A stretch of 64,000 bases of DNA, from positions 1,156-65,155 of the forward strand of contig DATKIP010000093.1 in assembly GCA_035544015.1 (NCBI GenBank), in the 5' to 3' direction. This document shows positions 2,919 through 39,934 of the stretch, piece after piece (position 1 is the stretch's first letter; each line of letters opens with the position of its first letter). The stretch is from Candidatus Saccharimonadia bacterium (GTDB lineage: Bacteria; Patescibacteriota; Saccharimonadia; UBA4664). Under the pieces are notes generated by a model, which was not told the origin of the DNA, did not search any database, and saw only the letters and a list, made by a program, of their open reading frames with translations. The translations under genes and the position numbers were made by a program.

Positions 2919-3004
2919 GCGCGAGTGGTGGAATGGTAGACACGCTAGATTCAGGTTCTAGTGCCGGCAACGGTGTGGAGGTTCGACTCCTCTCTCGCGC
3001 ACCA
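2919..3004 (+). tRNA. tRNA-Leu (anticodon CAG), class II with long variable arm, CCA encoded
   Basis: Acceptor GCGCGAG/CTCGCGC, anticodon stem CTAGA/TCTAG with loop TTCAGGT, T-loop TTCGACT. The 3' end was anchored using the ORF-track ATG at 2933, which lies inside the tRNA. Confidence 0.85.
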
Positions 3005-3091: not shown

Positions 3092-3508
3092 CTAGCCGCA
3101 ATTACCCCATGGACTGGTGTAGCTTGTGCCACCATGGTAGCCAAAGAATCGCACGCATTTACCCTTGCCATACTGCTTAACTGGACCGGCATAGTATTTG
3201 TAGTCGCCGGTGTCATAGGCCCAGCTTGAACCACTCGTTTGCAACCCTGCCGTGGTACGGGTTGGGGTGCCGACTTGTGTCGTCTTAATAGTAACCACAC
3301 AATTATATGAGCCGTTGTAAAGTTGATAAACTACAGCGCCACTAAGTGCATGTGAACGTTGTACGGTGTAGCCAGAACCACAAACCCCTTGAGGCGTGTA
3401 GGGATTGGCCGCGGCTTGTGCCGGTCCCGCCAACAAGGCAGCGGGGAGAACAGACATGAGGGCGCTTATACCCAAAGTCCTTAGCTTGGTAAATGCGCGT
3501 ATCTTCAT
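3092..3508 (-). CDS. small secreted cysteine-containing protein (signal peptide), hypothetical
   Basis: 138 aa with N-terminal signal peptide ...LLAGPAQAAA and four Cys. A strong SD (AAGGAGG, 4 nt before the ATG) is seen on the reverse complement at about 3513-3530. Confidence 0.6.
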   Translation of the reverse strand: MKIRAFTKLRTLGISALMSVLPAALLAGPAQAAANPYTPQGVCGSGYTVQRSHALSGAVVYQLYNGSYNCVVTIKTTQVGTPTRTTAGLQTSGSSWAYDTGDYKYYAGPVKQYGKGKCVRFFGYHGGTSYTSPWGNCG

Positions 3509-4246: not shown

Positions 4247-6022
4247 TTGAAAGGAGCCCTCGTGGCCACGTTCCTTGCCCGATGGCGTTCCGCCTTGCCG
4301 ACCCGTCGATTCCCGGCTGGCAAATTAGTCGCCTCCACCGCCATGCTGTCGCTCCTGCCCACGCTCGCCAGCTTCTTGGGCAACCGCTACCAAGTGTCGG
4401 TGCAAGACCTATTCCTGCCGGTAATCGTCGACCTCCTTACGGCTGCCCTGGTGGTGGCCGTATTTTACCGCTCGTGGCGCAAAGACGCGCTGGCCGCCGG
4501 TCTCGCGGCTGGGCTTTTGGTGCTAGTGCTGGTTTCAAATTACGACGGCCGCCTGAGCACGATCTCCCCGATCTTTGACGCCGTTTCACCGTTTGTGGGC
4601 GTCGGGTGGGTCTACAGCTTGGTGTTTATGGTGCTACTCGGTGCATTGGCAGCGGCGATCGGGCGTCTCGCGAGTCGCCTCGTGCGGCTGCGCGGTTGGT
4701 CTTCGCGCGAAATCGTTCGCGCCGCCACCATCGCGGTGAGCGTCACATTCGCCATCCAGGTCGCAACCGTCGTCCAGGAGTTCGCCGTTGAATGGCCACA
4801 ATTCTTCTACAAAGCCCCGGCCTTAACCACCACAGCAGCCGCCACCCCCGCCAGCCCCAAGCCCGATATTTACTACATTGTGCTCGATCGCTACGCCAGC
4901 CAAGACGTGCTAGCGAGCCAGTTTGGCTTCAACAACGACGAATTCATCCAATTTCTCAAAGACAACCACTACTACGTCAACCCGTCCGCTCACAACAATT
5001 ACCCGTACACCACCATGTCGATAGCCTCCACGATGAGCGCCGACTACAACACATCCATCGTGCAGCAATTCGAAAACTCCACGAAACAAACGGTCATTCC
5101 CTTCAATGAAACCATCCGCCAAGCCCCCGTGGCGCAGACCCTGCAAAAGCTGGGCTATAGCTACAATCTCGTCGGCAATTGGTACGAGACCTCAAATGAA
5201 TCCCCTGTCGCCGATCATACCTACCAGCAAACCGGCATTTTCACGCTACTCGGCCACACGTTTACTCTCGATAATTTCCCCAAGATCATCCTGAGCCAGA
5301 GCATCTTCAGCCGGTTTATTCAAGCTAGCCCCAGTATCGGGCAGTTTCAGGCCCTGCGTTACACCAATTTGGGCGATGTCGACATGGCGCACTACCAGCT
5401 CCAAACACTCAAGGATCTCGCGGCCGCACCTCCCGGCGGGCGCTTCATTTTTGCGCACATTTTGGTCCCCCACGACCCTTACAACTTTAATGCCGACGGC
5501 TCAATCTCCACCACTACCAACAGCGACAACATAGGCGCACCGGTGAAGCAGAAATATCTCGGCCAGGTGCAATACATTAATGGCCAAATGAAGACCATTT
5601 TGAGCAACATCCAATCCGCCAGCCGAGGTCAGGCCGTAGTCGTACTGCAATCGGATGAGGGGCCGTACCCCGCGCAGCTCAACGACGAAGATTTCGATGC
5701 CAACGATCTGGACGGACTCCTGCAGGCCGGCGACATGCGGCAGTGGTCCGACGCCAACCTGCAGATGAAGTTTGGAAATTTGGCCGCCTACCACATCCCG
5801 GCCGCCGATTGGACTCGCGACACCGACGCGGCCGACTCCGTAAACATCTTTCGGCTGATTCTCAATTCATATTTTGGCGCCGGCATGTCATATTTGCCCG
5901 ATTGCTATTACGCGTATCCCAATGGTCGGGACAAACCACTCAGCTTCACCAGCATCACCACCCGCTTGACCGGCGCGGCCGAGGATAGCCGCTGCGGCGC
6001 CAATGGCGGCCTGAAGCCTTAG
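4247..6022 (+). CDS. membrane-anchored sulfatase/alkaline-phosphatase-superfamily protein, LtaS/phosphoglycerol-transferase-like
   Basis: 591 aa with N-terminal multi-TM region. The C-terminal domain carries IYYIVLDRYASQ...HILVPHDPY motifs typical of LTA-synthase/sulfatase folds. TTG start at 4247; alternative GTG at 4262 preceded by AAGGAG (4251-4256). Confidence 0.65.
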   Translation: MKGALVATFLARWRSALPTRRFPAGKLVASTAMLSLLPTLASFLGNRYQVSVQDLFLPVIVDLLTAALVVAVFYRSWRKDALAAGLAAGLLVLVLVSNYDGRLSTISPIFDAVSPFVGVGWVYSLVFMVLLGALAAAIGRLASRLVRLRGWSSREIVRAATIAVSVTFAIQVATVVQEFAVEWPQFFYKAPALTTTAAATPASPKPDIYYIVLDRYASQDVLASQFGFNNDEFIQFLKDNHYYVNPSAHNNYPYTTMSIASTMSADYNTSIVQQFENSTKQTVIPFNETIRQAPVAQTLQKLGYSYNLVGNWYETSNESPVADHTYQQTGIFTLLGHTFTLDNFPKIILSQSIFSRFIQASPSIGQFQALRYTNLGDVDMAHYQLQTLKDLAAAPPGGRFIFAHILVPHDPYNFNADGSISTTTNSDNIGAPVKQKYLGQVQYINGQMKTILSNIQSASRGQAVVVLQSDEGPYPAQLNDEDFDANDLDGLLQAGDMRQWSDANLQMKFGNLAAYHIPAADWTRDTDAADSVNIFRLILNSYFGAGMSYLPDCYYAYPNGRDKPLSFTSITTRLTGAAEDSRCGANGGLKP

Positions 6023-6040: not shown

Positions 6041-6328
6041 ATGGTAAGTTTTTCCGGAGATGAACTCCTCACGCTAATCTTTCAGGTGGTGCTGGCCGCG
6101 TTATCGATCACACTAATGTACTTCGCGTTAAGGACGGGAAGATCCCTCGCTGTCTACAAGATCAACCTCGGTTTGTTGATAGTTGTCCTATTCGGTTTCG
6201 CAGTGCTCGCTCCCGATGATTTTAGTCTGAATGAATGGCCGGCGATACTCGCCTTTATGGCTGTAATTGTATCGCTGTTCGCCATCCTTGTAGGTAGGCG
6301 CCGCAAACGTGGAAGCCAACGGCCTTAA
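6041..6328 (+). CDS. small 3-TM membrane protein, paralog 1 of a 5-gene tandem family
   Basis: 95 aa. YFALRTGRSLAVYKINLGL is shared with paralog 5. Basic C-terminal tail RRKRGSQRP. Confidence 0.55.
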   Translation: MVSFSGDELLTLIFQVVLAALSITLMYFALRTGRSLAVYKINLGLLIVVLFGFAVLAPDDFSLNEWPAILAFMAVIVSLFAILVGRRRKRGSQRP

Positions 6329-6348
6329 ATGCTGAAGGATAATAAATA

Positions 6349-6645
6349 ATGTCCGACGGCTTCACATTACCGGTTGCGTTTGCGCTTATTGCGGGCGTAC
6401 TTGTACCGACGCTATCAATAATTCTCGTATTCGTTTCGATACTTTTCAAACGAGTATGGCCGTACGCAGTATGCCAAGGCGCACTAGTCGTTGCATTAAC
6501 ATACTTGGCCGTATATTGGATGCAAACGGATATTGATCCGTGGAATAAGTATTGGTCAAACGTCTTTGTTTTGGTTGGTTGGATTGCGGTGCTACTAGCA
6601 ACCGGCATATTTTTTGCCAGAAGGAATCGCCAAACTCGGCATTAG
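6349..6645 (+). CDS. small 3-TM membrane protein, paralog 2
   Basis: 98 aa with three hydrophobic helices and basic tail RRNRQTRH. AAGGAT lies upstream of the ATG. Confidence 0.5.
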   Translation: MSDGFTLPVAFALIAGVLVPTLSIILVFVSILFKRVWPYAVCQGALVVALTYLAVYWMQTDIDPWNKYWSNVFVLVGWIAVLLATGIFFARRNRQTRH

Positions 6646-6649
6646 CAGC

Positions 6650-6955
6650 ATGGGAGCAAACTTCACCAATCTCGAATCAGCCCTCTTGCTGGCTATGATT
6701 TCCCTGCCTGCACTATCGATGTTGCTAGTGATCGTCGCCCTATTCATCAAGAAGACGCTCTGGCCCTTCGCGGGCACTGCTGGCGTGGTTTTATTGGTGC
6801 TTGTATGCTTGGCTTCGCCATGGCAGCAGGATTTTTCAGTAAGTAGCCTCGCATGGCATCAATACTGGACCGCTTGGCCAGTGCAACTGGGCTGGGTGGC
6901 TATTGTGCTGTCGATAGCGATAATACTTCGGAGAAAGCCTCGAGCACAGAGATAG
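6650..6955 (+). CDS. small 3-TM membrane protein, paralog 3
   Basis: Internal ATG (MGANFTNLE...) of track ORF 6614..6955, chosen to remove overlap with paralog 2. Basic tail RRKPRAQR. Confidence 0.5.
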   Translation: MGANFTNLESALLLAMISLPALSMLLVIVALFIKKTLWPFAGTAGVVLLVLVCLASPWQQDFSVSSLAWHQYWTAWPVQLGWVAIVLSIAIILRRKPRAQR

Positions 6956-7237
6956 TTGAAACAGGATATGGATATCGGTACGTACACATTTATTATTTGG
7001 CTCTTGCTGCCTGGGTTGTCGATTCTCTCGATCTATTGCGCCACAATCAGCCAGGTTAAGCTCGTCCCTTACTTTGTCACGGTTGGGCTAACCCTCATTA
7101 CGCTTATAGGCTTGGGGATGCAGGATGGTTTCGGCCTAGACTATTGGCAGGCCGGGACAACGGTGCTTGGCTGGCTGTCGGTAGGAATTTCAAGTGTTAT
7201 GGTGCTCGCAAAGAAGTTCCGCGTGCCGCGAAAATGA
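6956..7237 (+). CDS. small 3-TM membrane protein, paralog 4
   Basis: 93 aa, TTG start (alternative ATG at 6968). Tail KKFRVPRK. Confidence 0.5.
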   Translation: MKQDMDIGTYTFIIWLLLPGLSILSIYCATISQVKLVPYFVTVGLTLITLIGLGMQDGFGLDYWQAGTTVLGWLSVGISSVMVLAKKFRVPRK

Positions 7238-7518
7238 CCCAGAATTTCACTGACCTCGATTGGCTGCTGTACTTTACCACATGGATCTTTTTGCCAGCAC
7301 TCTCCGCTGCGATGGTGTACTTCGCCTTAAAACCGGGAAAATCGCTTGGTGCTTACAAAATAAATCTCGGTCTCGTAGCGATCATATTGCTGGCGCTAAT
7401 ACCTGCGCTAGATTCAGCCATCGGCTACTGGAACGCGGGCTCGCCAAAACTTGCGCTGCTAGCCATCGGACTGTCTTTGGCTATATTGCTCATAAGAAAG
7501 TTCCGCACACGGCACTAA
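7234..7518 (+). CDS. small 3-TM membrane protein, paralog 5
   Basis: Internal ATG (MTQNFTDLDW...) overlapping the paralog 4 stop as ATGA. YFALKPGKSLGAYKINLGL is nearly identical to paralog 1. Tail RKFRTRH. Confidence 0.55.
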   Translation: MTQNFTDLDWLLYFTTWIFLPALSAAMVYFALKPGKSLGAYKINLGLVAIILLALIPALDSAIGYWNAGSPKLALLAIGLSLAILLIRKFRTRH

Positions 7519-7543
7519 TCGCATAGAATCGACCCAAACTGAA

Positions 7544-7584
7544 GCCGCGGAGGGTTAGATCGTCGGGGTCCAACCCTCCGCCGC
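7544..7584. terminator. stem-loop between convergent genes (possible bidirectional terminator)
   Basis: GCCGCGGAGGGTT-(15 nt loop)-AACCCTCCGCCGC, a roughly 13-bp stem with one mismatch. No T-run. Confidence 0.35.
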
Positions 7585-7615
7585 AGCCGCTAGTCAGCCT
7601 CGGCTGGCCTCGCCG

Positions 7616-8068
7616 TTACTCGGATGGCGGTTCCGCCGGGAAGCGTTTGATGTAGGTATACGCTCGCTCCCAGGGTAGGTATGGAAAATACTCCGGTGGT
7701 CGGTGGTTGTTCTTGAGGGCGTAGCTCGGCAGACCCTCCTCCACTACTATCCGCTCGTACTCCCAGCCAGGGTGTTTTTGCCGATACGCCGCACCGTATA
7801 CTTCGAGTAGTTCTTCCTCGCGGGTCCAGCCGTTGAAGTCAAACACCCACACCCCATTGCTGGCGTACATATGGTGACCTGGCTGCTCTCCCCTGGGCTT
7901 GATATGGATGAGCTTGTAGCCTTCCCCGGTATGCAGCTCCAAGAACATATGCGCCAGAATATGGCATGCCCCGGCCGCAAAGAAAGCCCTATCCTCCCGC
8001 TTCCAGGCCAAAAATGGGTCCCGGTACTCTTCGGGAGTACGCTCGTACACGATTCCGGGTTGGTACAC
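7616..8068 (-). CDS. hypothetical protein
   Basis: 150 aa with good coding bias, convergent with the small membrane-protein array. No domain recognised. Confidence 0.5.
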   Translation of the reverse strand: MYQPGIVYERTPEEYRDPFLAWKREDRAFFAAGACHILAHMFLELHTGEGYKLIHIKPRGEQPGHHMYASNGVWVFDFNGWTREEELLEVYGAAYRQKHPGWEYERIVVEEGLPSYALKNNHRPPEYFPYLPWERAYTYIKRFPAEPPSE

Positions 8069-29405: not shown

Positions 29406-30347
29406 ATGCCTGACAATGAAGAGTTGCCTTTGCCCAGTGAGGGCGAAAGCAAAATCGACCTTTTCAAAGGCAAAGAAATCCGTAAAGTTTTACATGAAGG
29501 CGAGTGGTGGTTCGTTGTCGTAGATGTTATTGCTAGTCTCACTGGATCGATTGATCCAACTGGTTATGTAAAGGACATGCGGCGTCGAGATAAGGGTCTA
29601 GCAGAAGGGTGGGGGCAAATTGCCACCCCCCTTCGCATTGAAACCTCTAAAGGGCCACAAAACATCAATTGTGCCAATATTGAGGGGCTTTTCCGTATAA
29701 TGCAGTCCGTGCCCTCTCCAAAGGCAGAGCCATTCAAAAAATGGCTGGCAAAGTCTGCATTTGAACGGTTACAGGAAATCGACAATCCCGAGCTGGCAGT
29801 CCAACGTGCCATTGCTCTTTATCGGGCAAAGGGTTATCCCGATGGGTGGATCGATACTAGAATTAAAAATAAGGTCAGTCGAGAAATCCTGACTAAAGAA
29901 TGGTTTGAGCGCGGCGTACAGGATATGGATTACGCAATCTTAACAGATGCAATTTCCATTGAGACTTTCGGATTGAGCACGGCCAAGCACAAAGAGCTCA
30001 AAGGACTAAAAAGCCAGAGTCTCCGCGATAATATGACGCCAATTGAGCTAACCCTTACTACATTGGGTGAGCAATCCGCCACCGAGATAACCCGTGCTAA
30101 TAATGCTCAGGGGAAATGGCAAAATCTTACGGCGGCAAAAGCTGGTGGTAAAATTGCTGGAAACGCAAGAATGCAACTTGAGGAAGCAACAGGGCAAACG
30201 GTTGTATCTGATCAAAGCTATCTTACTGAACGTCAAAGACAAAATAATGCCCAAATTGAGGCTACAATTAATGATACTCTTAGCCGGATATTACGCCTTC
30301 CGGGGACTGACCCGCTTGAAGCAGGCGAGATTGGTACAGTCAGCTAG
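29406..30347 (+). CDS. Bro-N domain protein / DNA-damage-inducible protein D (DinD)-like
   Basis: The N-terminal region LFKGKEIRKVLHEGEWWFVVVDV resembles the Bro-N fold. Its stop overlaps the IS transposase stop, so it is probably 3'-truncated by the IS. Confidence 0.6.
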   Translation: MPDNEELPLPSEGESKIDLFKGKEIRKVLHEGEWWFVVVDVIASLTGSIDPTGYVKDMRRRDKGLAEGWGQIATPLRIETSKGPQNINCANIEGLFRIMQSVPSPKAEPFKKWLAKSAFERLQEIDNPELAVQRAIALYRAKGYPDGWIDTRIKNKVSREILTKEWFERGVQDMDYAILTDAISIETFGLSTAKHKELKGLKSQSLRDNMTPIELTLTTLGEQSATEITRANNAQGKWQNLTAAKAGGKIAGNARMQLEEATGQTVVSDQSYLTERQRQNNAQIEATINDTLSRILRLPGTDPLEAGEIGTVS

Positions 30348-31237
30348 CCAATAAGTCCCTTATACGTCAGCCGTTTCCCGCTCGCATATCCGAACCAGTT
30401 CTCGAATCGCTCACCATCCTTCATCTCGCGGGTATTGTACCGATAACCAAACTCCCCCGCGTACTTCGCCATATGCTTCCGGCTTACTCCAATATAGATG
30501 GCGTCGATACCAGACTTAAGATGGCTCCAGTACCCCTCAATTGTGTTCGTGTGCACCGTTCCGACCACGTATTCTTTGGTGTGATTTACCGAGTAATGCG
30601 GATAGCCCATAGCAGTGAGAGCGTGATACGCCTTGAGCTGGTCAGTCATAACCGTAGCCCTTGGGTCAATGTCTTTGATGATGTGAGGCAGAAGATAGGG
30701 AGCTGACCCCTTGGTCACAATATGAGTCTTGATGTGGCCTTTGCGCTCCACAAGTCCCATCACGGGTGTCTTGTTCGTAGACTTGTTACTGGCGTTCATG
30801 CCAACGCCCTTTTGATGGCCGCCAATATAGGTTTCATCTACTTCTACAATTCCATTTAGAAGTCTGTCACTTCCATCTAAAACCGCATGGCGGATACGCT
30901 GGAGCAGGAACCAGGCACTTTTCTGGGTAATGCCAAGATGTTTGCTCATCTGGATAGAGCTAACGCCTTTCTTGTGGGATGTAAGCAAATATATAGCCAA
31001 GAACCACTTCTGGAGGGGAAGACGAGACTCTTCAAAGATTGTGCCAATACGAGCCGAGAATTGTTTCATACAAGCCGTGCATTTGAATATCCGGCGAGAC
31101 TTGAGGGTGTAAACATCTAAGCAGCCGCAGTGGGGGCAAATAGGCTCACCATGCCAACGAGATTCAGCTAGATAGGCGTGGCAGGCATCTTCGTTGGGGA
31201 AGCGGTTGTAAAAGGCGATGAGATTGAGGGTTTCCAT
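30344..31237 (-). CDS. IS1595-family transposase (ISXO2-like, N-terminal zinc ribbon plus DDE)
   Basis: 297 aa. CPHCGC...CTAC zinc ribbon and the DDE region (...IVEVDETYIGG..., ...VMTDQLKAY..., ...NTIEGYWSHLK) are typical of IS1595. Confidence 0.85.
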   Translation of the reverse strand: METLNLIAFYNRFPNEDACHAYLAESRWHGEPICPHCGCLDVYTLKSRRIFKCTACMKQFSARIGTIFEESRLPLQKWFLAIYLLTSHKKGVSSIQMSKHLGITQKSAWFLLQRIRHAVLDGSDRLLNGIVEVDETYIGGHQKGVGMNASNKSTNKTPVMGLVERKGHIKTHIVTKGSAPYLLPHIIKDIDPRATVMTDQLKAYHALTAMGYPHYSVNHTKEYVVGTVHTNTIEGYWSHLKSGIDAIYIGVSRKHMAKYAGEFGYRYNTREMKDGERFENWFGYASGKRLTYKGLIG

Positions 31238-31870: not shown

Positions 31871-31877
31871 TTTGCTA

Positions 31878-33260
31878 ATGCTAAAGCCTAAACGACACCT
31901 TGGCTCGATTGCAGCGGCCGCCCTGCTGCTGGCTCCCGCCGTCGCCATGCAACTCCTGCCGGCCGCCGCCTCGGCCGACCTGTTACAAAGCACGCACTTT
32001 CGGCTCGATCCGAATGTGGCCGACACCTTCGGCGGCGCCACCGGCTCGGCCTCATACCAGCTCACCGATGCCGGCGGTGAGGGAGCAGTGGGCTCGGGCG
32101 CTAGCCAGAGCTACAAACTCACCCAGGGTTATGTCAGCCAGCTGGCGCACTCGCTTTCGCTCTCGGTGCTGCCCGGCTCCACCTATGCCTACTGGCCGCT
32201 CGACACCGGCACCGGCACCGTCGCCTACGACGTCGGCACCACTGCCGACGACGGCACCCTCGTAGCCGCGCCGAGCTGGACGACCGGCATCGTGGGCCAA
32301 GGCGTCACGCTCAATGGCTCCAGTCAATATGTTTCTACCGCCACCTCGGTCGCCAATCCTACGACCTTCACGCTCGAAGTGTGGTTCAAATCCACGAGCT
32401 CCAACGGCGGCGAGCTCATGGGCCTGGGCAGCGCCCAAACCGGCTCCAGCGCCACCGTAGACCGCGTGCTGTACCTCGATAATGCTGGCCACATCGTGTT
32501 TGGCACCAAGCCGAGTGCCTTCAAAACCGTCGCCACCGCCTCTACCTACACCGACGGCTCGTGGCACCACGTGGCTGCCACGCTCGGCGCCACCGGGTTG
32601 CTGCTCTACGTGGATGGCCTGCGCCAGGGCACCGACGCCAGCACCACCACGGTGGCCAACTTCAGTGGCTACTGGCGCCTCGGCTTCGATAGCCTCGCCG
32701 GCTGGCCCTCGGCGCCCACGAGCAATTTCCTGGCCGGCACCATCGATGAAGCCCGCGTCTACACCCGCGCCCTGAGCGACGCCGAGATCAAAAACGACTA
32801 CACTGCCGGCGCCAACGCCCTCAAAGGCGCCTTCACGCTGCCCAACATCACCCCTGGCCAGTCCCAAACCTACTCAGCCGACGCGGTAGTGCGCACCGAC
32901 GCCGCCGGCTACGACCTTTACATGCAGGCGCTCACCCCACTCACCCACACCGACACCGTCACTACTATCCCCAATGTCTCCGGCACCATTGCCTCACCGG
33001 CCGCCTGGACCGAAGGCACCACGAAGGGCATTGGCTTCACGCTCACCGCCGGCACCTCCCTGGAAGGCAAATGGGGGACCAGTCCGGGTTACGCCTATGC
33101 CGGCCTGCCCAGCACCGCCACCGTTTACCACTCGCGCACCGGCCTCACCGCCGGTGTCCCCGAGCTCACCACTATCCAATACCGCGCCGACACCACCAGC
33201 AGCCAAAAGCAGGGCACCTACTCGGCTACCATTGTTTACACGGCGACCGTTCGGCCATGA
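31878..33260 (+). CDS. secreted LamG (concanavalin-A-like lectin) domain protein with WxL-like C-terminus
   Basis: Signal peptide. LamG-like core (...FTLEVWFKSTSSNGGELMGLG...GSWHHVAATLGATGLLLYVDG...ARVYTRALSDAEI). C-terminal tail QGTYSATIVYTATVRP. The track ORF starts at TTG 31872. Confidence 0.6.
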   Translation: MLKPKRHLGSIAAAALLLAPAVAMQLLPAAASADLLQSTHFRLDPNVADTFGGATGSASYQLTDAGGEGAVGSGASQSYKLTQGYVSQLAHSLSLSVLPGSTYAYWPLDTGTGTVAYDVGTTADDGTLVAAPSWTTGIVGQGVTLNGSSQYVSTATSVANPTTFTLEVWFKSTSSNGGELMGLGSAQTGSSATVDRVLYLDNAGHIVFGTKPSAFKTVATASTYTDGSWHHVAATLGATGLLLYVDGLRQGTDASTTTVANFSGYWRLGFDSLAGWPSAPTSNFLAGTIDEARVYTRALSDAEIKNDYTAGANALKGAFTLPNITPGQSQTYSADAVVRTDAAGYDLYMQALTPLTHTDTVTTIPNVSGTIASPAAWTEGTTKGIGFTLTAGTSLEGKWGTSPGYAYAGLPSTATVYHSRTGLTAGVPELTTIQYRADTTSSQKQGTYSATIVYTATVRP

Positions 33261-34141
33261 ATGCCCCATTGCGCCTGCTGCTGGTCAGCCTCACCCTGGC
33301 GACCGTAGGGCTCGCAATGCCCGCGCCGGCCCGCGCTGACGCCCCCGGTTTGCAAGCCAGCCCGCTCGAGTACATCGACACGCTCACCCCGGGCCATATC
33401 AAAAACGGTTACGTTGACGTTTCCAACCCCGGCGACGGATCCCTCGCCATCCGCACGAGCGTGCGCGGTTTTCGCCAAACCGGCACCGACGGCCGCCTCG
33501 AATTTTTCGACGACCCGGAGCTCATCGGCGGCATCAGCCTCGGCCTGAGCAGCTTTGAGCTAGGGCCCCGAGAAGCCGTGCGTGTGGTGTTTCACGTCGA
33601 CCCGTCCAAGCTCCCTGCCGGCGGTGTGTATGCCGCCCTCTTTTTCCAAACCGTCCCTCCGTCGCAATCTCCCAATAGCTCGTACGTAGCCGAAAGCGCC
33701 CGCATCGGCACCTTGCTCGAGCTCGTAAACGGCCCGGCCACGCCGCATCACGGCGCTGTCGCCAAACTCGATCTGCCGTTCCTGCAGCTCGGCCGCGGCC
33801 TCACCGGCACACTGCAGTATCAAAACACCGATCGTACGGCCCACCCCGTCGGCTACCGTCCGGCTCTCACGCTGAGCGTGCTGCCGTGGGCGGCTCACCC
33901 CAAGCTCGCCACCGGTCTCGTCCTGCCCAGCGCCACCCGTGAGTTCGCCATCGAGCGGCCAGGCTCATTTTTTGGCCTGTTACCCGTCACCATTACCGAC
34001 ACCGACACGCATCAAACCACCACGCGCTGGGTATTGGTGTGCACCGCGTGGTGCCAGTGGCTATTGCTGGTAATTGCCACCGCCCTCACGCTCGGAGTAG
34101 CGCGCAAAATCGGGCCCAGCCGGAGATCTACGTTAAAGTGA
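33257..34141 (+). CDS. DUF916-like cell-surface protein, second copy
   Basis: ATGA overlap with the upstream gene. Signal peptide. AGGVYAALFFQTVPP motif. C-terminal TM plus ARKIGPSRR tail. Confidence 0.55.
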   Translation: MNAPLRLLLVSLTLATVGLAMPAPARADAPGLQASPLEYIDTLTPGHIKNGYVDVSNPGDGSLAIRTSVRGFRQTGTDGRLEFFDDPELIGGISLGLSSFELGPREAVRVVFHVDPSKLPAGGVYAALFFQTVPPSQSPNSSYVAESARIGTLLELVNGPATPHHGAVAKLDLPFLQLGRGLTGTLQYQNTDRTAHPVGYRPALTLSVLPWAAHPKLATGLVLPSATREFAIERPGSFFGLLPVTITDTDTHQTTTRWVLVCTAWCQWLLLVIATALTLGVARKIGPSRRSTLK

Positions 34142-34416
34142 TCACAGCCGACCTCATCGTGATTCCGCCGCTGGCCTTGGTGGTGTGGGTGGCGTATGGT
34201 AGCCAAAAGCACATCCTGCGCCCCAGAGACAAACGTCTCGCCATCACCTGTGTCATGGTAGCGCTCGGCGTATGGTGGCTGACTGGCCTCGGTCACCTAG
34301 ATTGTGGGCGCACGTGCTCACCATCAGTCACAGGCGACGATCGGCTCTCGCTCGTCGTCAATCTCCTGATCTGCTTGCTGCCAATCGCCCTCTCCTATGC
34401 CCGTAAGCGCACATAA
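34138..34416 (+). CDS. small 3-TM membrane protein with basic tail (resembles the 6041-7518 family)
   Basis: GTGA overlap with the upstream gene; 92 aa; tail SYARKRT. Confidence 0.4.
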   Translation: MITADLIVIPPLALVVWVAYGSQKHILRPRDKRLAITCVMVALGVWWLTGLGHLDCGRTCSPSVTGDDRLSLVVNLLICLLPIALSYARKRT

Positions 34417-34499
34417 CCAACACCAGCATTGACTGTACGGTTTTTGTTCCATATATTCAATGGCATGCCCGCGATAAACTAGCAGTAACGGAGAGTCCC

Positions 34500-34916
34500 A
34501 TGCCAGAGTACGCCACCATCCAAGACGTTCGCACGATCATTGCCGAGGCCCTCGTGCCGGTAACGGAGCGCCTCAATAAAATAGACGGCCGGATCGATGA
34601 CGCGGACGGTCGGTTCGACAAAATAGATAACCGGTTCGACAAAATGGAGCTACGCCAAGACCGTATGCAAGTTAGCATTGACGATATCCAAAACAATTAC
34701 CGCGCCATACTAGTCCAAAACGAGGAGACCAACACAAAGCTCGATGCGATCCTCGAGTACGTTGCCGATGTCCCCGACCAAAACGCACGCATCGGCCGCC
34801 TCGAAGAAAACGCCGAACACGAAAAACTCAAGTCTGAGCTGGATCGCTCCCACATCGACGCCCTGCGCAGTGACATCGAGGCGCACCGGCGTCGCCCTCA
34901 CCCCACCAATTCATAA
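34500..34916 (+). CDS. coiled-coil protein with RFDK(I/M) repeats, related in architecture to 31362..31844
   Basis: Shared N-terminal pattern T(L/I)(E/Q)D(I/V)R and C-terminal heptad-like repeats DGRIDDADGRFDKIDNRFDKMELRQDRM. GGAGAG SD. Confidence 0.5.
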   Translation: MPEYATIQDVRTIIAEALVPVTERLNKIDGRIDDADGRFDKIDNRFDKMELRQDRMQVSIDDIQNNYRAILVQNEETNTKLDAILEYVADVPDQNARIGRLEENAEHEKLKSELDRSHIDALRSDIEAHRRRPHPTNS

Positions 34917-34990
34917 AAGGCTTACCGCAAGCCACAGTCTTGCCCAAACCATAAGCACGATGTTAAAATGCTTATGTAACAAAGGTTGTG

Positions 34991-37900
34991 ATGGAGTTAC
35001 GCCGCCGGCTTCGCATAGGGAGAATCATTCTCCTGAGCACAGCGGCTCAGCTCGTAGCGACTATTTTTGGCGTCTCCGCAATTTTGGCGCCCATGCCGGT
35101 ACAATCCGCCCAAACCGTTCCCTACATGGTGAACTTCCAGGGCCGCCTCACCGACAATTCCGGCAACATCTTGAGCGACGGCCTATACAACGTCAAATTT
35201 CGCCTCTGGACCCTGGCTTCGGGCGGTACCAACGCCTGGGAAGCCGACCGAGTGCGCGGCGCCTCCGACCACCGCATCCAGATCACAAATGGCCTCTTCA
35301 ACATCCAATTTGGCGACACTACGCTCGGCGATCCCGCGCTTGGCCCCACGCTGTTTAGCAGCGGCACCTACCCCCTGTATCTGGAGGTTGAGCTACCCAC
35401 TCCCGCCACCGCCACCTGCTCCACCAACGGCTGTGCGAGCTTCACCGAAGGCGCCATGACCCCGCGCCAGCCGCTCGCCTCCACGCCCTACGCCTTCAGC
35501 GCCGACACCCTCGACGGCCTCGATTCGGCCGCTTTTGGCCAGCTCTCGGCCAGTAACACCTTCACCAGCGCCAATATTTTTAGCCCCAGCTCCGGTGTCG
35601 CCATCACGATCAAACCCGCCGCCGCCACTCACTCGCTCGACGTCAAAGACTCAAGCAATGTAATCCAAGCCTACTTCGATGCCAGTGGTATTCTCAATGT
35701 TGGGCAAACCATTCAGGCCACCACCTCTACCGTCGATCTGGGGACGAGCGGCTCCACCTTCCGTACCGGGTACTTTGGCACGAGCGTCCAAACCCCCACG
35801 CTCAACGCCGCTACTTCCGGCGCCACCATCACCACCAACGCTGGCACCTTGCAGCGCACCTCCTCCGGCGGCCTCACTATCGATCTCAAAGACGCCGGCG
35901 CCACCACACTCACCGTCACCAACTCGGGCGGGGGAGTGGCAGGCATCAGTGCCACCGGCGGCCTCACCATCGGCACCGGCAGGGTCATCACTGTGGGCGC
36001 CACCGCCGGCACCGGCGTTACCTGCAGCTCTGGCCAAATCCTCGACGCCATCACCGTCGCCGGCGGTGTCGTCACTGGCGGCAGCTGCATCGCGGCCGGC
36101 GGCGGCGACAAATTCCTCGCCGCCTGGACCTCACAGCAGGCTACCACCGCCACCAACACCCAGACCACGGTGCAGTTCACCGGCGCCGCCAACTCCGCAC
36201 CGAGCTTCAATAATGGCACGCACGTGCTCACCCTGCCCTCGAATGCCTCCCGGCTACTCATAGAATCCAAGGCCGGCGGCGGTGGTGGTGGCTCAGTGGG
36301 CACCACGAGCGCCGTGAAGGCGGCCGGTGGTGGCGGCGAAGGCGGCTTGTCGCAGCTATTCGTCGGCGGCAGCCTGGCTGCCAACTATTATTTCAAAGTT
36401 GGCGGCGGCGGCGCGGGCGGCGCCTCAGGCGGCACCAACACCGGCACCACCGGGAGCTCCAGCTGCCTCGGCACCAACTCCGGCGACGCCTGCACCACGC
36501 CGGCGGTCAACGCGGTCGGCGGCACCGGCGGCACTGGGGTCACCACCGCCGTGCCCGCCACCGGCGGCGCGGGCGGAGCGGCCGGCTCGGGCGCCGGCGA
36601 CGTGAAGCTCTCCGGCGCGCCCGGCTGCACCAGCACCGCCACCGCCACCACGGCCATCGTCAGCGGCTGCGGTGGCGGCCAAGGCGGCGGCGCCAGCCAG
36701 GCCGGAGCCGCCGCTGCCGCAAACGGCATCGCCGGCACCTCGGGCGGCGGCGGGAGCGGCGGCATCCAGGGCACCGCCGCGGTCACCTCGCGCGCCGGCG
36801 GCAACGGCGGCGACGGCTACGTGAAGATCTCCGTCTACGTCACGGTCGCCGGCACCGGCAACCCCGCCACGCTCCAGTCCGCCTACGACAACGCCACCAA
36901 CCCCGAAATCACCCTCTCTGGCAACGGCCTCACCGTTCGCGACTCGTCCGGGGGGCTGGGCAGCAACCTGTTTGAGGTCCAGGACAACGCTGGCGCCACC
37001 ACCTATCTTGGCGTCACCACCTCCGGCATCACCACCAGCGGCACCGTCACCGCCAGCACTACCGGCACCATCAACGGCCTGTCCGTGAGCGCCGGCGCGC
37101 TTAGCGGCATCACCGGCTACACCCAAGCCTCGGGCACGTTTAGCCAAACCTACGCCACCGCCACCGCCGGCACCTCCGGCCAAGTTCTTGGCTTCTCCAA
37201 CACCAATGCCGGCGCGGGCGTCACCGTCCAGGGCACCAAAATCACCCCCAGCAACGCCACCCCCGGGTCCGGCACCAACACCCTCAACGTCCTCGACTTC
37301 GCCGCCGGCAACTCGCTTGGTGCCGGCGCGCTCACCAACGGCATCAACTTCGAATCCGCCACCGGCTACACCGCGTTCATCAACACCCCCACCTACAAGC
37401 TCGAATCCGACGGCGACCAAACCGCCGCCTTCACCGCCCTCGACGGCACCTCCACCGCCAACGGCGCCGGCACCAACGCCACCACCCTCATCCTCACTTC
37501 GGCCGCCAACTTCGACATCGGCAATTACGTGCAGGTCAACTCGGCCAACTGCGGCGGCACCGGCGTCAACCCGTGCTATGCCAAAATCACGGCCAAAGCC
37601 ACCAACACGCTCACCATCACCCCCGCGCTCACCTGGGCCAACGCCGCCGTCGTGAATGAATACCACCTGCCCGAAATCGGCGGCACCGACACCGCCCAAA
37701 CCCTCGCAGGCCGCTACGGCCGCGGCTACTTCATCGCCGGTGTCGCTACCGGCAACGGCACCACCTATTACAATGAGGACTCCATCGACTCCAGCCTCAC
37801 CTCGTTCAACCTGCTCACCTCGAACGTCACCACGCTCAATATCGGCACCGCCGCCACTACACTTGCCATTGGCTCGGCCAGCACCAGCGTCAGCGTTCCC

Positions 37901-39934
37901 GGTACGTTCACGGTTGCCGGCCAGTCCATCGTCAACGGTTCCGGCCAAATCAACGGAGCCCAAATCCAATCCGGCACCATCGCCAACGCCGCGCTCGCAA
38001 GCCCCAGCCTCACCGTCGCCGCCGGCACCGGGCTGAGCGGCGGCGGCAGCGTGGCGCTCGGTGCCGGCACTAGCCTCGCGGTGGTGTACGGCAGCTCGAG
38101 TACCTCGGCCGTCCGCGGCGACACCGCGCTCACGTGCCCGAGCGGCTCGGGCAACCTCTCGGGCGGCGGCACCGCCATTACGCTCGGTACCGGCGGCACG
38201 TGCGGCGCCATTACCATCTCAAATGCCCCCACCTTCACCACCAGCGTCACGAGCCCCACTATCAACGCTACCTCCGGTTTCCAGGCCAACGGCACCCCCG
38301 CGGTCGGCAGCACCTGCGGCGCCGGCGCGGCGATCACCGGCGCCACCTTCACCACCGGCATCCTCACGTCGGCCGGCACCTGCACCACCTTCCAGACCGC
38401 CGGCAGCTACCTCGTGCAAGCCCCGGCCTCTTCGGCCGCCAATACCGTCACCGCGCCCACCGGCGTGGTGGGCCTGAGCGTCAAAGGCACCACTGGCACC
38501 GCTGCGCACCTCCTAGATGTCTACAACTCGGCGGTCAGCCCCACCGTTCAATCGTTCTTCGATCTAAACGGCGCATTCAACACCGCCCAGGCCATCGTTG
38601 CCCCCACCAGCACCAACTCCATCAACGGCCTTGTCATCAACGCCGGTGCGCTCACCAGCGTCGGCAACATTACCGGCGCCGGCGCCGTCACGCTCCAGTC
38701 GGCTGCCGCCACAGCGCTCACCATCGATTCCGGCACCACCGGCGCCATCAACATCGGCACCGGCACCACGTCGGCCAAAACCATCACCATCGGCCCTAGC
38801 GCCACTAACACCAACGCCACCACCTACAACCTCGGCGTCAATACCGCCGGCACCCAAGACATCAACATCGGTTCCGCCGGCTCCGGTGACGCCGCCGCCG
38901 GCACTACCGTGAGCATCCAGGCCGGCACCACTGCCGGCACCGCGCTTATGCTCGGCACCAACGGCGCCGGCGGCATCACCATCGATTCCGGCACCACCGG
39001 CGCCATCAACATCGGCACCGGCGCCAATGCCAAAACACTCACGCTCGGCAACACCACCACCACGGCCGTCACCAACATCCTCGGCGGCGCCACCGGCGCT
39101 ATCAACATTGGTACCGTGGGCAGCGCGGCCACCGCCTCGGCGGTCCACGTCGCCGACACCAGCGGCAATGCCGTCCAAGGCGTCACCATCGGCTCCATCG
39201 GCAGCACCAGCAGCGCCACCACGCTCCAGGCCGGCGGCACGCTCACGCTCAAGGGCGCCAGCTCCTCCGCCACCGCCGTCCAGATCCAAACCGCCGCCGG
39301 CACCAACCTGCTCGTCTTCGACACCAGCGCCAGCCGCCTCACCGTCGGCGTGGTCGACGGTACCGGCACCTTGCTCGTCTTCGACTCCAAAAACACCACC
39401 GGCGACCCCACCGGCGTGGGCGGCGGCGAATACTACAACTCCAACAACAACAAATTCCGCTGTTTCCAAAACAGTGTTTGGCAAGATTGCATCTCCCACA
39501 CCGTCCTGCGGCTCGCCGCCGACGTCATCAACAACAACGCCACCGCCAACACCATGGCCGACGTCACCGGCCTCACGTGGAGCGTCACCTCCGGCACCCT
39601 CTACACCTTCAGCTGCACCATCTCGTACACCGCCGCTGCCACCACCACCGGGTCGAGGTGGTCCATCAACGGCCCGGCCACCCCAACCGCGCTGTTTTAC
39701 AAATCCCAATACTCACTCACTACAACCACCTACACCACCAACGACCCCGTAAACGCCTACGACAGCCCGGCCGCCTCCAGCGCCTCCTCGGCCGCCATCA
39801 CGGGCAACAACATCGCTACGGTCAGCGGGTTCATCCGCCCGTCCGCCAACGGCACCGTAGCACTGCGATTTGCCTCCGAGGTGTCGAGCTCGGCCATTAC
39901 CGCCAAAGCCGGCAGTACCTGCGAATACTGGTAG
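34991..39934 (+). CDS. giant Gly/Thr/Ala/Ser-rich secreted protein (1648 aa) with beta-helix-like internal repeats
   Basis: N-terminal signal-like segment. Repeated modules of roughly 80 aa (ITIDSGTTGAINIGTG occurs 3 times). C-terminal roughly 170-aa Cys-containing domain ending STCEYW. Confidence 0.65.
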   Translation: MELRRRLRIGRIILLSTAAQLVATIFGVSAILAPMPVQSAQTVPYMVNFQGRLTDNSGNILSDGLYNVKFRLWTLASGGTNAWEADRVRGASDHRIQITNGLFNIQFGDTTLGDPALGPTLFSSGTYPLYLEVELPTPATATCSTNGCASFTEGAMTPRQPLASTPYAFSADTLDGLDSAAFGQLSASNTFTSANIFSPSSGVAITIKPAAATHSLDVKDSSNVIQAYFDASGILNVGQTIQATTSTVDLGTSGSTFRTGYFGTSVQTPTLNAATSGATITTNAGTLQRTSSGGLTIDLKDAGATTLTVTNSGGGVAGISATGGLTIGTGRVITVGATAGTGVTCSSGQILDAITVAGGVVTGGSCIAAGGGDKFLAAWTSQQATTATNTQTTVQFTGAANSAPSFNNGTHVLTLPSNASRLLIESKAGGGGGGSVGTTSAVKAAGGGGEGGLSQLFVGGSLAANYYFKVGGGGAGGASGGTNTGTTGSSSCLGTNSGDACTTPAVNAVGGTGGTGVTTAVPATGGAGGAAGSGAGDVKLSGAPGCTSTATATTAIVSGCGGGQGGGASQAGAAAAANGIAGTSGGGGSGGIQGTAAVTSRAGGNGGDGYVKISVYVTVAGTGNPATLQSAYDNATNPEITLSGNGLTVRDSSGGLGSNLFEVQDNAGATTYLGVTTSGITTSGTVTASTTGTINGLSVSAGALSGITGYTQASGTFSQTYATATAGTSGQVLGFSNTNAGAGVTVQGTKITPSNATPGSGTNTLNVLDFAAGNSLGAGALTNGINFESATGYTAFINTPTYKLESDGDQTAAFTALDGTSTANGAGTNATTLILTSAANFDIGNYVQVNSANCGGTGVNPCYAKITAKATNTLTITPALTWANAAVVNEYHLPEIGGTDTAQTLAGRYGRGYFIAGVATGNGTTYYNEDSIDSSLTSFNLLTSNVTTLNIGTAATTLAIGSASTSVSVPGTFTVAGQSIVNGSGQINGAQIQSGTIANAALASPSLTVAAGTGLSGGGSVALGAGTSLAVVYGSSSTSAVRGDTALTCPSGSGNLSGGGTAITLGTGGTCGAITISNAPTFTTSVTSPTINATSGFQANGTPAVGSTCGAGAAITGATFTTGILTSAGTCTTFQTAGSYLVQAPASSAANTVTAPTGVVGLSVKGTTGTAAHLLDVYNSAVSPTVQSFFDLNGAFNTAQAIVAPTSTNSINGLVINAGALTSVGNITGAGAVTLQSAAATALTIDSGTTGAINIGTGTTSAKTITIGPSATNTNATTYNLGVNTAGTQDINIGSAGSGDAAAGTTVSIQAGTTAGTALMLGTNGAGGITIDSGTTGAINIGTGANAKTLTLGNTTTTAVTNILGGATGAINIGTVGSAATASAVHVADTSGNAVQGVTIGSIGSTSSATTLQAGGTLTLKGASSSATAVQIQTAAGTNLLVFDTSASRLTVGVVDGTGTLLVFDSKNTTGDPTGVGGGEYYNSNNNKFRCFQNSVWQDCISHTVLRLAADVINNNATANTMADVTGLTWSVTSGTLYTFSCTISYTAAATTTGSRWSINGPATPTALFYKSQYSLTTTTYTTNDPVNAYDSPAASSASSAAITGNNIATVSGFIRPSANGTVALRFASEVSSSAITAKAGSTCEYW

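Follow-up and report, generated by a model that had tools for sequence, protein, structure and literature searches.

What are five very small membrane proteins, encoded side by side in a bacterium of the Saccharimonadia, and what are they kept for? The question is raised by positions 6041-7518 of a 64,000-nt stretch of contig DATKIP010000093.1 (assembly GCA_035544015.1), hereafter called the window, in which five consecutive open reading frames (ORFs), designated p1-p5, lie on the forward strand (Table 1). Their products belong to a rare family, whose genes at other loci closely follow a large gene for an exported-looking protein; within the window the five genes stand without that partner, and their base composition is atypical. 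The explanation favoured here, from sequence comparisons and with somewhat less than even confidence, is that they represent a horizontally acquired orphan array of immunity-type genes.

The array and its protein family

The genes are tightly packed, with 20 nt between p1 and p2, 4 nt between p2 and p3 and 12 nt between p3 and p4; p4 and p5 overlap by 4 nt at the ATGA of position 7234, and p1 starts 18 nt past the stop codon of the gene at 4343..6022. Alternative start codons exist for p3 (TTG 6614) and p4 (TTG 6956). The alignment of p3 to the family profile begins at residue 18 of the ORF, corresponding to ATG 6650. The TTG of p4 would give a protein of 93 residues and reduce its distance from p3 to 0 nt; public annotation uses the form of 89 residues. 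For each of the five proteins, hydropathy predicts three transmembrane (TM) segments. The N-terminus and the second loop are acidic, the latter being aromatic as well, the first loop is basic and the tail is rich in Arg/Lys, from which the positive-inside rule predicts an N-out/C-in topology. AlphaFold2 models p5 as a simple bundle of three helices (mean predicted local distance difference test score, pLDDT, of 71), for which a Foldseek search of the PDB gave a best expect (E) value of 2.0; the matches to NuoK and SemiSWEET-like proteins are not meaningful. An initial annotation, made from the DNA alone, had pointed out the five same-strand ORFs with their three TM segments and basic tails, the ATGA junction, and a segment common to p1 and p5 (YFAL..G.SL..YKINLGL), all of which were found again in the ORFs, the hydropathy profiles and the sequence. 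The 56 nt beneath the common segment are 77% identical.

The same annotation took the five ORFs for paralogs. In pairwise BLASTP comparisons with composition correction the scores reach 50 bits, the related pairs being p1-p5, p2-p3 and p4-p5, and the similarity greatly exceeds chance expectation. A profile constructed from 16 relatives outside the window bears the paralogy out independently, since it matches all five proteins over their full length (E from 2e-15 to 3e-28), and it has no other match among the six-frame ORFs of the window. The proteins keep the family motifs LPxLS, YW and GWxAVxLS together with the basic tail. The proportion of synonymous differences between paralogs (pS) is 0.61-0.88, that is, saturated, the proportion of non-synonymous differences (pN) is 0.42-0.52, and about 60% of the identical residues are encoded by different codons. 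The five are true paralogs, and the saturation of synonymous sites together with the lower pN marks them as long-standing duplicates whose proteins have been retained, as opposed to repeats of recent origin. The interpretation of p1-p5 as pieces of a single disrupted gene, which the initial annotation had named as a finding that would refute it, was rejected: the relatives are stand-alone proteins of 89-141 residues, the profile matches are full-length, and pS is saturated.

Public annotations of the contig, in the soil metagenome 3300031184 of the Joint Genome Institute (JGI) and in the NCBI metagenome-assembled genome (MAG) of Saccharimonadia, contain p1, p4 and p5 only, p5 being listed at NCBI as hypothetical protein VMT30_06365. 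The p2 and p3 proteins are absent from both sets of gene calls and from the protein collections. Because the family profile matches both with E values of 1e-20 or below, p2 and p3 are two genes missed by annotation.

The family comprises 3-TM proteins of about 90-140 residues defined by the motifs LPxLS in the first TM segment, a K/R-rich stretch followed by (W)PY in the inner loop, YW in the outer loop, and GWxAVxLSxxIVLxRKxR covering the third TM segment and the tail; the length of the outer loop is highly variable. A HMMER search over 1.84 billion representative proteins returned 14 genuine relatives beyond the window (E from 4.5e-13 to 4.7e-5) and one extra match that is a low-complexity artefact. 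The matches listed in a word-indexed protein search with family alignments included the window proteins and three relatives from short contigs. No member was found in two scans of 185,579 GTDB species-representative genomes. In these species representatives, the 75 pattern matches to an alignment of p1, p5 and P0006 contained no true relative, and the seven matches to a hand-made degenerate DNA pattern were all attributed to chance by a profile check. The latter pattern detected 14 loci in JGI metagenome contigs, the genuine ones being only of the already known L016 type (loci are denoted here by L and proteins by P numbers). IMG/VR was scanned with the family pattern and with the partner protein described below, and neither scan gave a match.

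As the initial annotation had supposed, the family corresponds to none that is known: p1-p5 have no significant match in Pfam, NCBIfam, PHROGs or PADLOC, and when 18 members were compared singly with Pfam, each Pfam family was hit by two members at most, even with the threshold relaxed to E <= 1, and DUF443 by none. The JGI label of P0015, a subtype-C protein (L011 9838-10113), as 'putative Mn2+ efflux pump MntP' looks like a mis-annotation. Judging from these searches, both the small-protein family and the partnership considered next appear to be undescribed.

A partner gene at other loci and its absence from the window

The contigs of nine relatives were compared, representing about seven independent locus types. 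Tandem occurrence is usual: family members are present in two copies in L009 and L015, in three copies in L011 and L013, as one complete and one truncated copy in L016, and as a fused double gene in L010. In the product of the latter, P0005 (L010 6058-6564), a two-TM half unit is naturally fused to a full subtype-A unit. At each of the six other locus types for which upstream DNA is available (L008, L010, L011/12, L013/14, L015 and L016/17/25/33/36), the first small gene lies 0-36 nt after a large gene, and the large genes are homologous, their products being 44-57% identical between loci.

The large protein contains TolB-like PD40 beta-propeller repeats (Pfam, E down to 3.6e-20), and in Pfam its C-terminal domain matches Lipase_GDSL_2 alone (E of 2.6e-5, 6e-5 and 9e-4). 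Otherwise Pfam identifies only CBM96 and DUF4082. The conserved blocks VGDSxSSGH, GGADD and an invariant G(Y/W)PH near the C-terminus are presumably blocks I, III and V of SGNH hydrolases. A tblastn search of plasmids and phages with the large protein retrieved only generic PD40 repeats.

Parts of the large gene recur further downstream. A profile of the last approximately 100 residues of the large protein detected C-terminal remnants (Table 1) in front of seven of the eight downstream small genes, ending in W-stop as the full-length large proteins likewise do; the repeated unit is therefore the C-terminal end of the large gene plus a small gene. Each fragment is a divergent variant and not a copy of the resident gene; in L016/L033 its identity to the resident C-terminus is 44-49%. 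The type of tail corresponds to the small protein that follows: SG(T/S)GQ(A/G)L(I/V)STKA(Q/R)AVL precedes subtype A in three of three cases (P0006, P0009, P0007), and NGSGTDGQ(E/D)(L/I)I precedes the subtype of P0011, P0014 and L011-3, also in three of three. Small genes persist where the large gene is damaged. In L011/L012 the latter is inverted and fragmented, with two small genes intact and the third (L011) frameshifted, and in L013 its parts lie in different reading frames, beside three intact small genes.

A separate observation concerns an insertion sequence (IS) encoding a DDE_Tnp_1 transposase, located within the orphan C-terminal fragment of L016/L036/L025 (2934-3689) and missing from L033, which is otherwise identical and comes from another sample. 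By comparison of the contigs, the array thus contains an insertion that is polymorphic at the level of the population.

The window contains neither a homolog of the large gene, as searched by tblastn, nor a remnant of its end, as searched with the C-terminal profile. Its array consists of five intact genes of three subtypes in the order A-B-B-C-A. Every one of the five has its nearest relative on another contig and not among its array neighbours. The best BLASTP partner of p1 is P0006, encoded on another metagenome contig (71 bits; p1 scores 55 bits with p5), that of both p2 and p3 is P0004 (72 and 76 bits, respectively), and that of p4 is P0015 (83 bits), with aligned N-termini (MGLGIYAFTIW and MDIGTYTFIIW); the closest relative of p5 is P0009. 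The array is therefore a collection of old subtypes and not the product of a recent local expansion. The GC content at third codon positions (GC3) is 0.46-0.62 in the array versus 0.68-0.80 in the flanking genes and 0.76 in the TM-rich part of the upstream gene; in the family genes of other loci it is 0.49-0.65. This atypical GC3 points to horizontal acquisition, and the array was probably acquired in this way.

Neighbouring genes and other features of the window

The gene directly upstream of p1 was called LtaS-like in the initial annotation. In the LtaS/EptA/MCR-1 family, five N-terminal TM helices are joined to an extracytoplasmic domain of the alkaline-phosphatase/sulfatase fold. The assignment of the window gene holds for fold and architecture only, the AlphaFold2 model (pLDDT 88) comprising about five N-terminal TM helices (residues 5-154) followed by an alpha/beta domain, for which the best Foldseek matches, with probability 1.0, were to EptC (E 1.5e-8), LtaS (2.8e-7), MCR-1 (3.5e-7) and EptA (4.8e-7), and to sulfatases as well. 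The TM-scores are modest (0.35-0.56) at 10-17% identity, soluble sulfatases score equally well, and the protein itself has no match in NCBIfam or Pfam, with none to Pfam Sulfatase at E <= 1. About 190 homologs are found in Patescibacteria/Saccharimonadia, some of them named 'sulfatase-like hydrolase/transferase' at NCBI, and many (38-63% identity) carry PF00884. T223 of a PYTT motif, H377 and D438-E439 are invariant and are candidates only for the catalytic Thr nucleophile and the metal ligands.

The closest orthologs of this enzyme (55-61% identity), at six loci in four other assemblies, have no member of the 3-TM family nearby. In L002-L007 the enzyme gene belongs to a conserved operon, where it directly follows genes for a TM peptide of 52-55 residues and a protein of about 460 residues; the window contains nothing that corresponds to these 54-residue and 459-residue operon members. 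The 460-residue protein of L002 has weak methyltransferase matches. Because the orthologs elsewhere lack the array, the adjacency of array and enzyme gene is, as these comparisons indicate, local and not a conserved functional link, contrary to what the initial annotation implied.

Table 1. Coordinates of the array, of neighbouring and other features of the window, and of large-gene remnants at other loci.
Feature	Location	Strand	Description	Basis
LtaS/EptA/MCR-1-type protein	4343..6022	+	membrane-anchored, alkaline-phosphatase/sulfatase fold	AlphaFold2, Foldseek
p1	6041..6328	+	95 aa, 3-TM, subtype A	non-window profile, E 2.2e-15
p2	6349..6645	+	98 aa, 3-TM, subtype B	non-window profile, E 1.5e-20
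p3	6650..6955	+	101 aa, 3-TM, subtype B	non-window profile, E 3.3e-28
p4	6968..7237	+	89 aa from ATG 6968, 3-TM, subtype C	non-window profile, E 4.8e-20
p5	7234..7518	+	94 aa, 3-TM, subtype A	non-window profile, E 1.3e-23
GC-rich hairpin	7544..7584		between p5 and convergent 150-aa gene; 16-nt arms, 88% complementary	
Laminin_G_3 protein	31872-33260		surface-protein cluster	
Protein of 294-356 aa	before 34138		no Pfam match; earlier called 'DUF916-like'	
Small 3-TM ORF	34138-34416		unrelated to the family; surface-protein cluster	
XhlA-like coiled-coil protein	34500-34916		sub-threshold match; surface-protein cluster	
Gly/Thr/Ala-rich protein	34988-39934		1648 aa; surface-protein cluster	
C-terminal remnant	L009 328-510			profile of large-protein C-terminus
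C-terminal remnants	L011 9924-10269, 10581-10706			profile of large-protein C-terminus
C-terminal remnant	L013 1980-2132			profile of large-protein C-terminus
C-terminal remnant	L015 1806-2072			profile of large-protein C-terminus
C-terminal remnant, IS-split	L016 2452-2834 + 3690-3797 (= L033 1298-1746)			profile of large-protein C-terminus

Co-transcription of the array with the upstream gene is plausible. The region following p5 (7519-7615) has a predicted folding energy of -39.5 kcal/mol (z = -2.1), and its hairpin is likely a transcription stop. A 14-nt inverted repeat (5986-5999 / 7579-7592, 13 of 14 positions complementary) brackets the array; it was rejected as an insertion signature, approximately 0.3 such pairs being expected by chance in 1.8 kb by our estimate. 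Beyond the hairpin lies a convergent gene (7616-8068, -) encoding a protein of 150 residues, preceded by a strong AAGGAGG ribosome-binding site. The protein has no family assignment, its sole match being a faint one (E 0.005, far below the cut-off) to the heme-degrading protein HmuQ. On the other side, adjoining a tRNA-Leu gene (2919-3004), a gene at 3092-3508 (-) encodes a protein of 138 residues with a signal-peptide-like N-terminus, four Cys residues and no family match; its GC3 is low (0.51), and it could be another acquired gene.

Far from the array, mobile DNA is represented by a gene with a Bro-N domain (29406-30347) that abuts a transposase of the IS1595 family (30344-31237, -), and a cluster of surface-protein genes occupies 31872-39934. 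The initial annotation had placed a sixth relative of p1-p5 in this cluster, behind a DUF916-like gene. Neither assignment survived: the ORF at 34138-34416 scores E values of 1.3 and 5 against two profiles of the family and has no BLASTP relation to p1-p5, and the preceding gene has no Pfam match at E <= 0.01.

A proposed immunity function and its alternatives

A full gene with its small gene, followed by displaced units of a C-terminal fragment and a small gene, is the signature of polymorphic toxin-immunity systems of the contact-dependent inhibition (CDI) and Rhs type. By analogy, we infer that the large protein may be toxic and that the small proteins may protect against it. The basic unit at other loci comprises an exported-looking PD40 + GDSL/SGNH-like protein and one small membrane protein, and newer modules seem to have pushed earlier ones downstream, leaving strings of remnants and small genes. 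The esterase-like protein would attack a membrane-proximal target in the envelope, and the small protein of matching subtype would neutralise this attacker on the membrane's outer face, perhaps via the C-terminal tail of the esterase-like protein. The window array would then shield the cell from esterase toxins of its neighbours. That small genes outlast a broken or absent large gene fits protective genes better than partners in export or anchoring. The initial annotation had suggested either an immunity or a phage-exclusion cassette, and the first part of this suggestion gains from the coupling to a partner gene and from the remnants at other loci.

A broader proposal is put forward more tentatively, as a possibility that could well prove wrong, namely that the PD40 + GDSL/SGNH-like protein and the 3-TM protein constitute an unrecognised contact-independent system of esterase toxin and membrane immunity in uncultured soil bacteria, diversifying by displacement of C-terminal modules. 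The epibiont would have taken over five of its immunity genes, representing three specificities, but not the weapon, as a protection against the esterases of neighbours, possibly of its own hosts.

Tandem membrane immunity paralogs and orphan modules are already known as a kind of system. The closest published parallel, by analogy of organisation, is TspA/TsaI, a membrane-depolarising type VII secretion system (T7SS) toxin with DUF443 immunity proteins. In Staphylococcus aureus, 2-16 non-identical copies of the gene for the membrane immunity protein TsaI follow tspA in tandem, fragments of the 3' end of tspA lie inside the tsaI cluster, and the paralogs are highly divergent and show few signs of recent recombination (PMC9484751); sets consisting of immunity genes only, in strains without the toxin, have been described for esaG (PMC9484751). 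The loci considered here resemble this system in having non-identical, highly divergent polytopic membrane paralogs after a putative toxin gene, fragments of the 3' end of that gene within the cluster, and a set of putative immunity genes without a toxin gene. They differ in that the 3-TM family is unrelated to DUF443 in sequence and has three TM segments, not five, by hydropathy and AlphaFold2, in that the PD40 + GDSL/SGNH-like partner is without an LXG or T7SS signal, and in that the window copy has neither toxin gene nor fragment.

The resemblance to cdiA-CT/cdiI and Rhs loci lies in the order of full gene, cognate small gene and displaced modules of fragment and small gene, and in each remnant being a divergent variant and not a copy of the resident gene. 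In contrast to these loci, a boundary between a conserved N-terminal and a hypervariable C-terminal part (such as VENN or PxxxxDPxGL) is not found, and repeats of the Rhs/YD or haemagglutinin kind are absent; the putative immunity proteins span the membrane here and are soluble binders there, and the organisms concerned are uncultured soil bacteria. In the literature, nothing comparable was found on SGNH effectors with immunity proteins, or on such systems in Saccharibacteria. For one soil Saccharibacterium, a polymorphic toxin with an adjoining immunity gene is on record (PMC6031116).

Several observations weigh against the reading of p1-p5 as immunity genes. Neither partner is tied to toxicity or immunity by a known family. 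The Lipase_GDSL_2 match of the large protein, at 20-25 bits, is below the gathering score of 32.9, and in comparison with PDB sequences the partner profile matches TolB-like propellers only, leaving the C-terminal domain unmatched. Pfam searches of the large protein detected none of the toxin-trafficking domains looked for (LXG, Rhs/YD, CdiA-type, haemagglutinin repeats, PT-VENN). In classical polymorphic toxins the C-terminal domain is hypervariable, and the large protein diverges evenly along its length (about 45-57% identity), its esterase-like domain being no more variable than the rest. Its N-terminus, which would carry a signal peptide, is unreadable, L015 and L016 being cut by contig ends and the start in L010 being doubtful. 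Tail and small protein could co-vary simply because linked DNA is inherited together, and the sample of about seven independent locus types is small. As to the window itself, the orphan status applies to the 64 kb examined, and an esterase gene may lie elsewhere in the MAG. No internal terminator and no convincing promoter were found in the array region. A Shine-Dalgarno-like motif (GAAGGA) precedes p2, and no clear motif precedes the other array genes, such motifs being weak for most genes of this genome too.

An unlikely alternative is that the small proteins are holin-like, or act as export or anchoring partners that form oligomers in the membrane and thereby release or retain the neighbouring esterase-like exoprotein, as holins do in holin-dependent (type 10-like) secretion or as a dedicated anchor would. 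In the window they would be a left-over or re-used set. Class I holins have three TM helices, an N-out/C-in topology and a highly basic C-terminal tail, and the small proteins match those of the lambda S105 type in size (about 90-110 residues), number of TM segments, predicted topology and tail. The tight coupling of the small genes to the large gene, at 0-36 nt, would suit this role, and the correspondence between tail type and small-protein subtype could mean docking. However, the holin matches, Phage_holin_2 with E of 0.04 and a holin PHROG with E of 0.27, are faint, single and insignificant, concerning one of 18 members, and neither an endolysin nor a phage context accompanies the genes, in line with the absence of matches among the viral contigs of IMG/VR. 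Five paralogs in a row set the array apart from holins. That these are intact and under purifying selection although no gene for a cargo lies near them, and that small genes stay intact beside broken large genes, would be hard to account for in an export partner, and the composition of the arrays varies freely from locus to locus (B-B, B-A, C-B-B, B-A-C, A-B-B-C-A).

Phage exclusion, the other part of the initial suggestion, fared worse, and a superinfection-exclusion or other anti-phage membrane cassette on mobile DNA is considered improbable. The arrangement of small membrane proteins in arrays, their variable outer loop, the sporadic distribution and the atypical GC3 are compatible with it, as are the mobile or defence-like neighbours at several loci (ImmA/Xre-type genes, a helicase, DUF6119, an IS, HTH_31/DUF5753). 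However, PADLOC gave no match and PHROGs no significant one, IMG/VR is negative for both the family pattern and the partner gene, no prophage genes adjoin the window array, and the constant PD40-GDSL partner with its C-terminal remnants would be left unexplained.

It is more improbable still that p1-p5 are the relics of an acquired cassette in decay, with no present function and transcribed at most by read-through. The lack of public gene calls for p2 and p3, the weak ribosome-binding motifs and the frameshifted or truncated copies elsewhere (copy 3 of L011, copy 2 of L016, copy 2 of L009) would agree with decay, but against the profile made from other loci all five ORFs are full length and preserve motifs and topology, pN lies far under the saturated pS, and clear Shine-Dalgarno motifs are lacking in most genes of this genome too.

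Least probable of all, and largely refuted by the comparative data, is the idea of co-transcribed accessory subunits of the LtaS/EptA-like enzyme that modulate lipid-linked head-group transfer: the common strand, the 18-nt gap with no terminator between and the five-TM, sulfatase-fold architecture of the upstream protein speak for it, but its orthologs lack a family member nearby at all six loci, at every other locus the family stands behind a different, unrelated gene, and the GC3 of the array is sharply unlike that of the enzyme gene.

Whatever the function of its members, a small family with clear motifs is now defined, of which databases and gene callers miss members, as two of the five window genes were unannotated. 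If the reading of p1-p5 as orphan immunity genes is true, the partner gene and the 3-TM family would represent a new interbacterial toxin/immunity pair, with an SGNH-type esterase effector and integral-membrane immunity proteins, and the partner gene makes this hypothesis directly testable by heterologous expression. A Patescibacterium with a reduced genome would then devote about 1.5 kb to genes for immunity only, which would bear on the survival of epibionts in dense soil communities.

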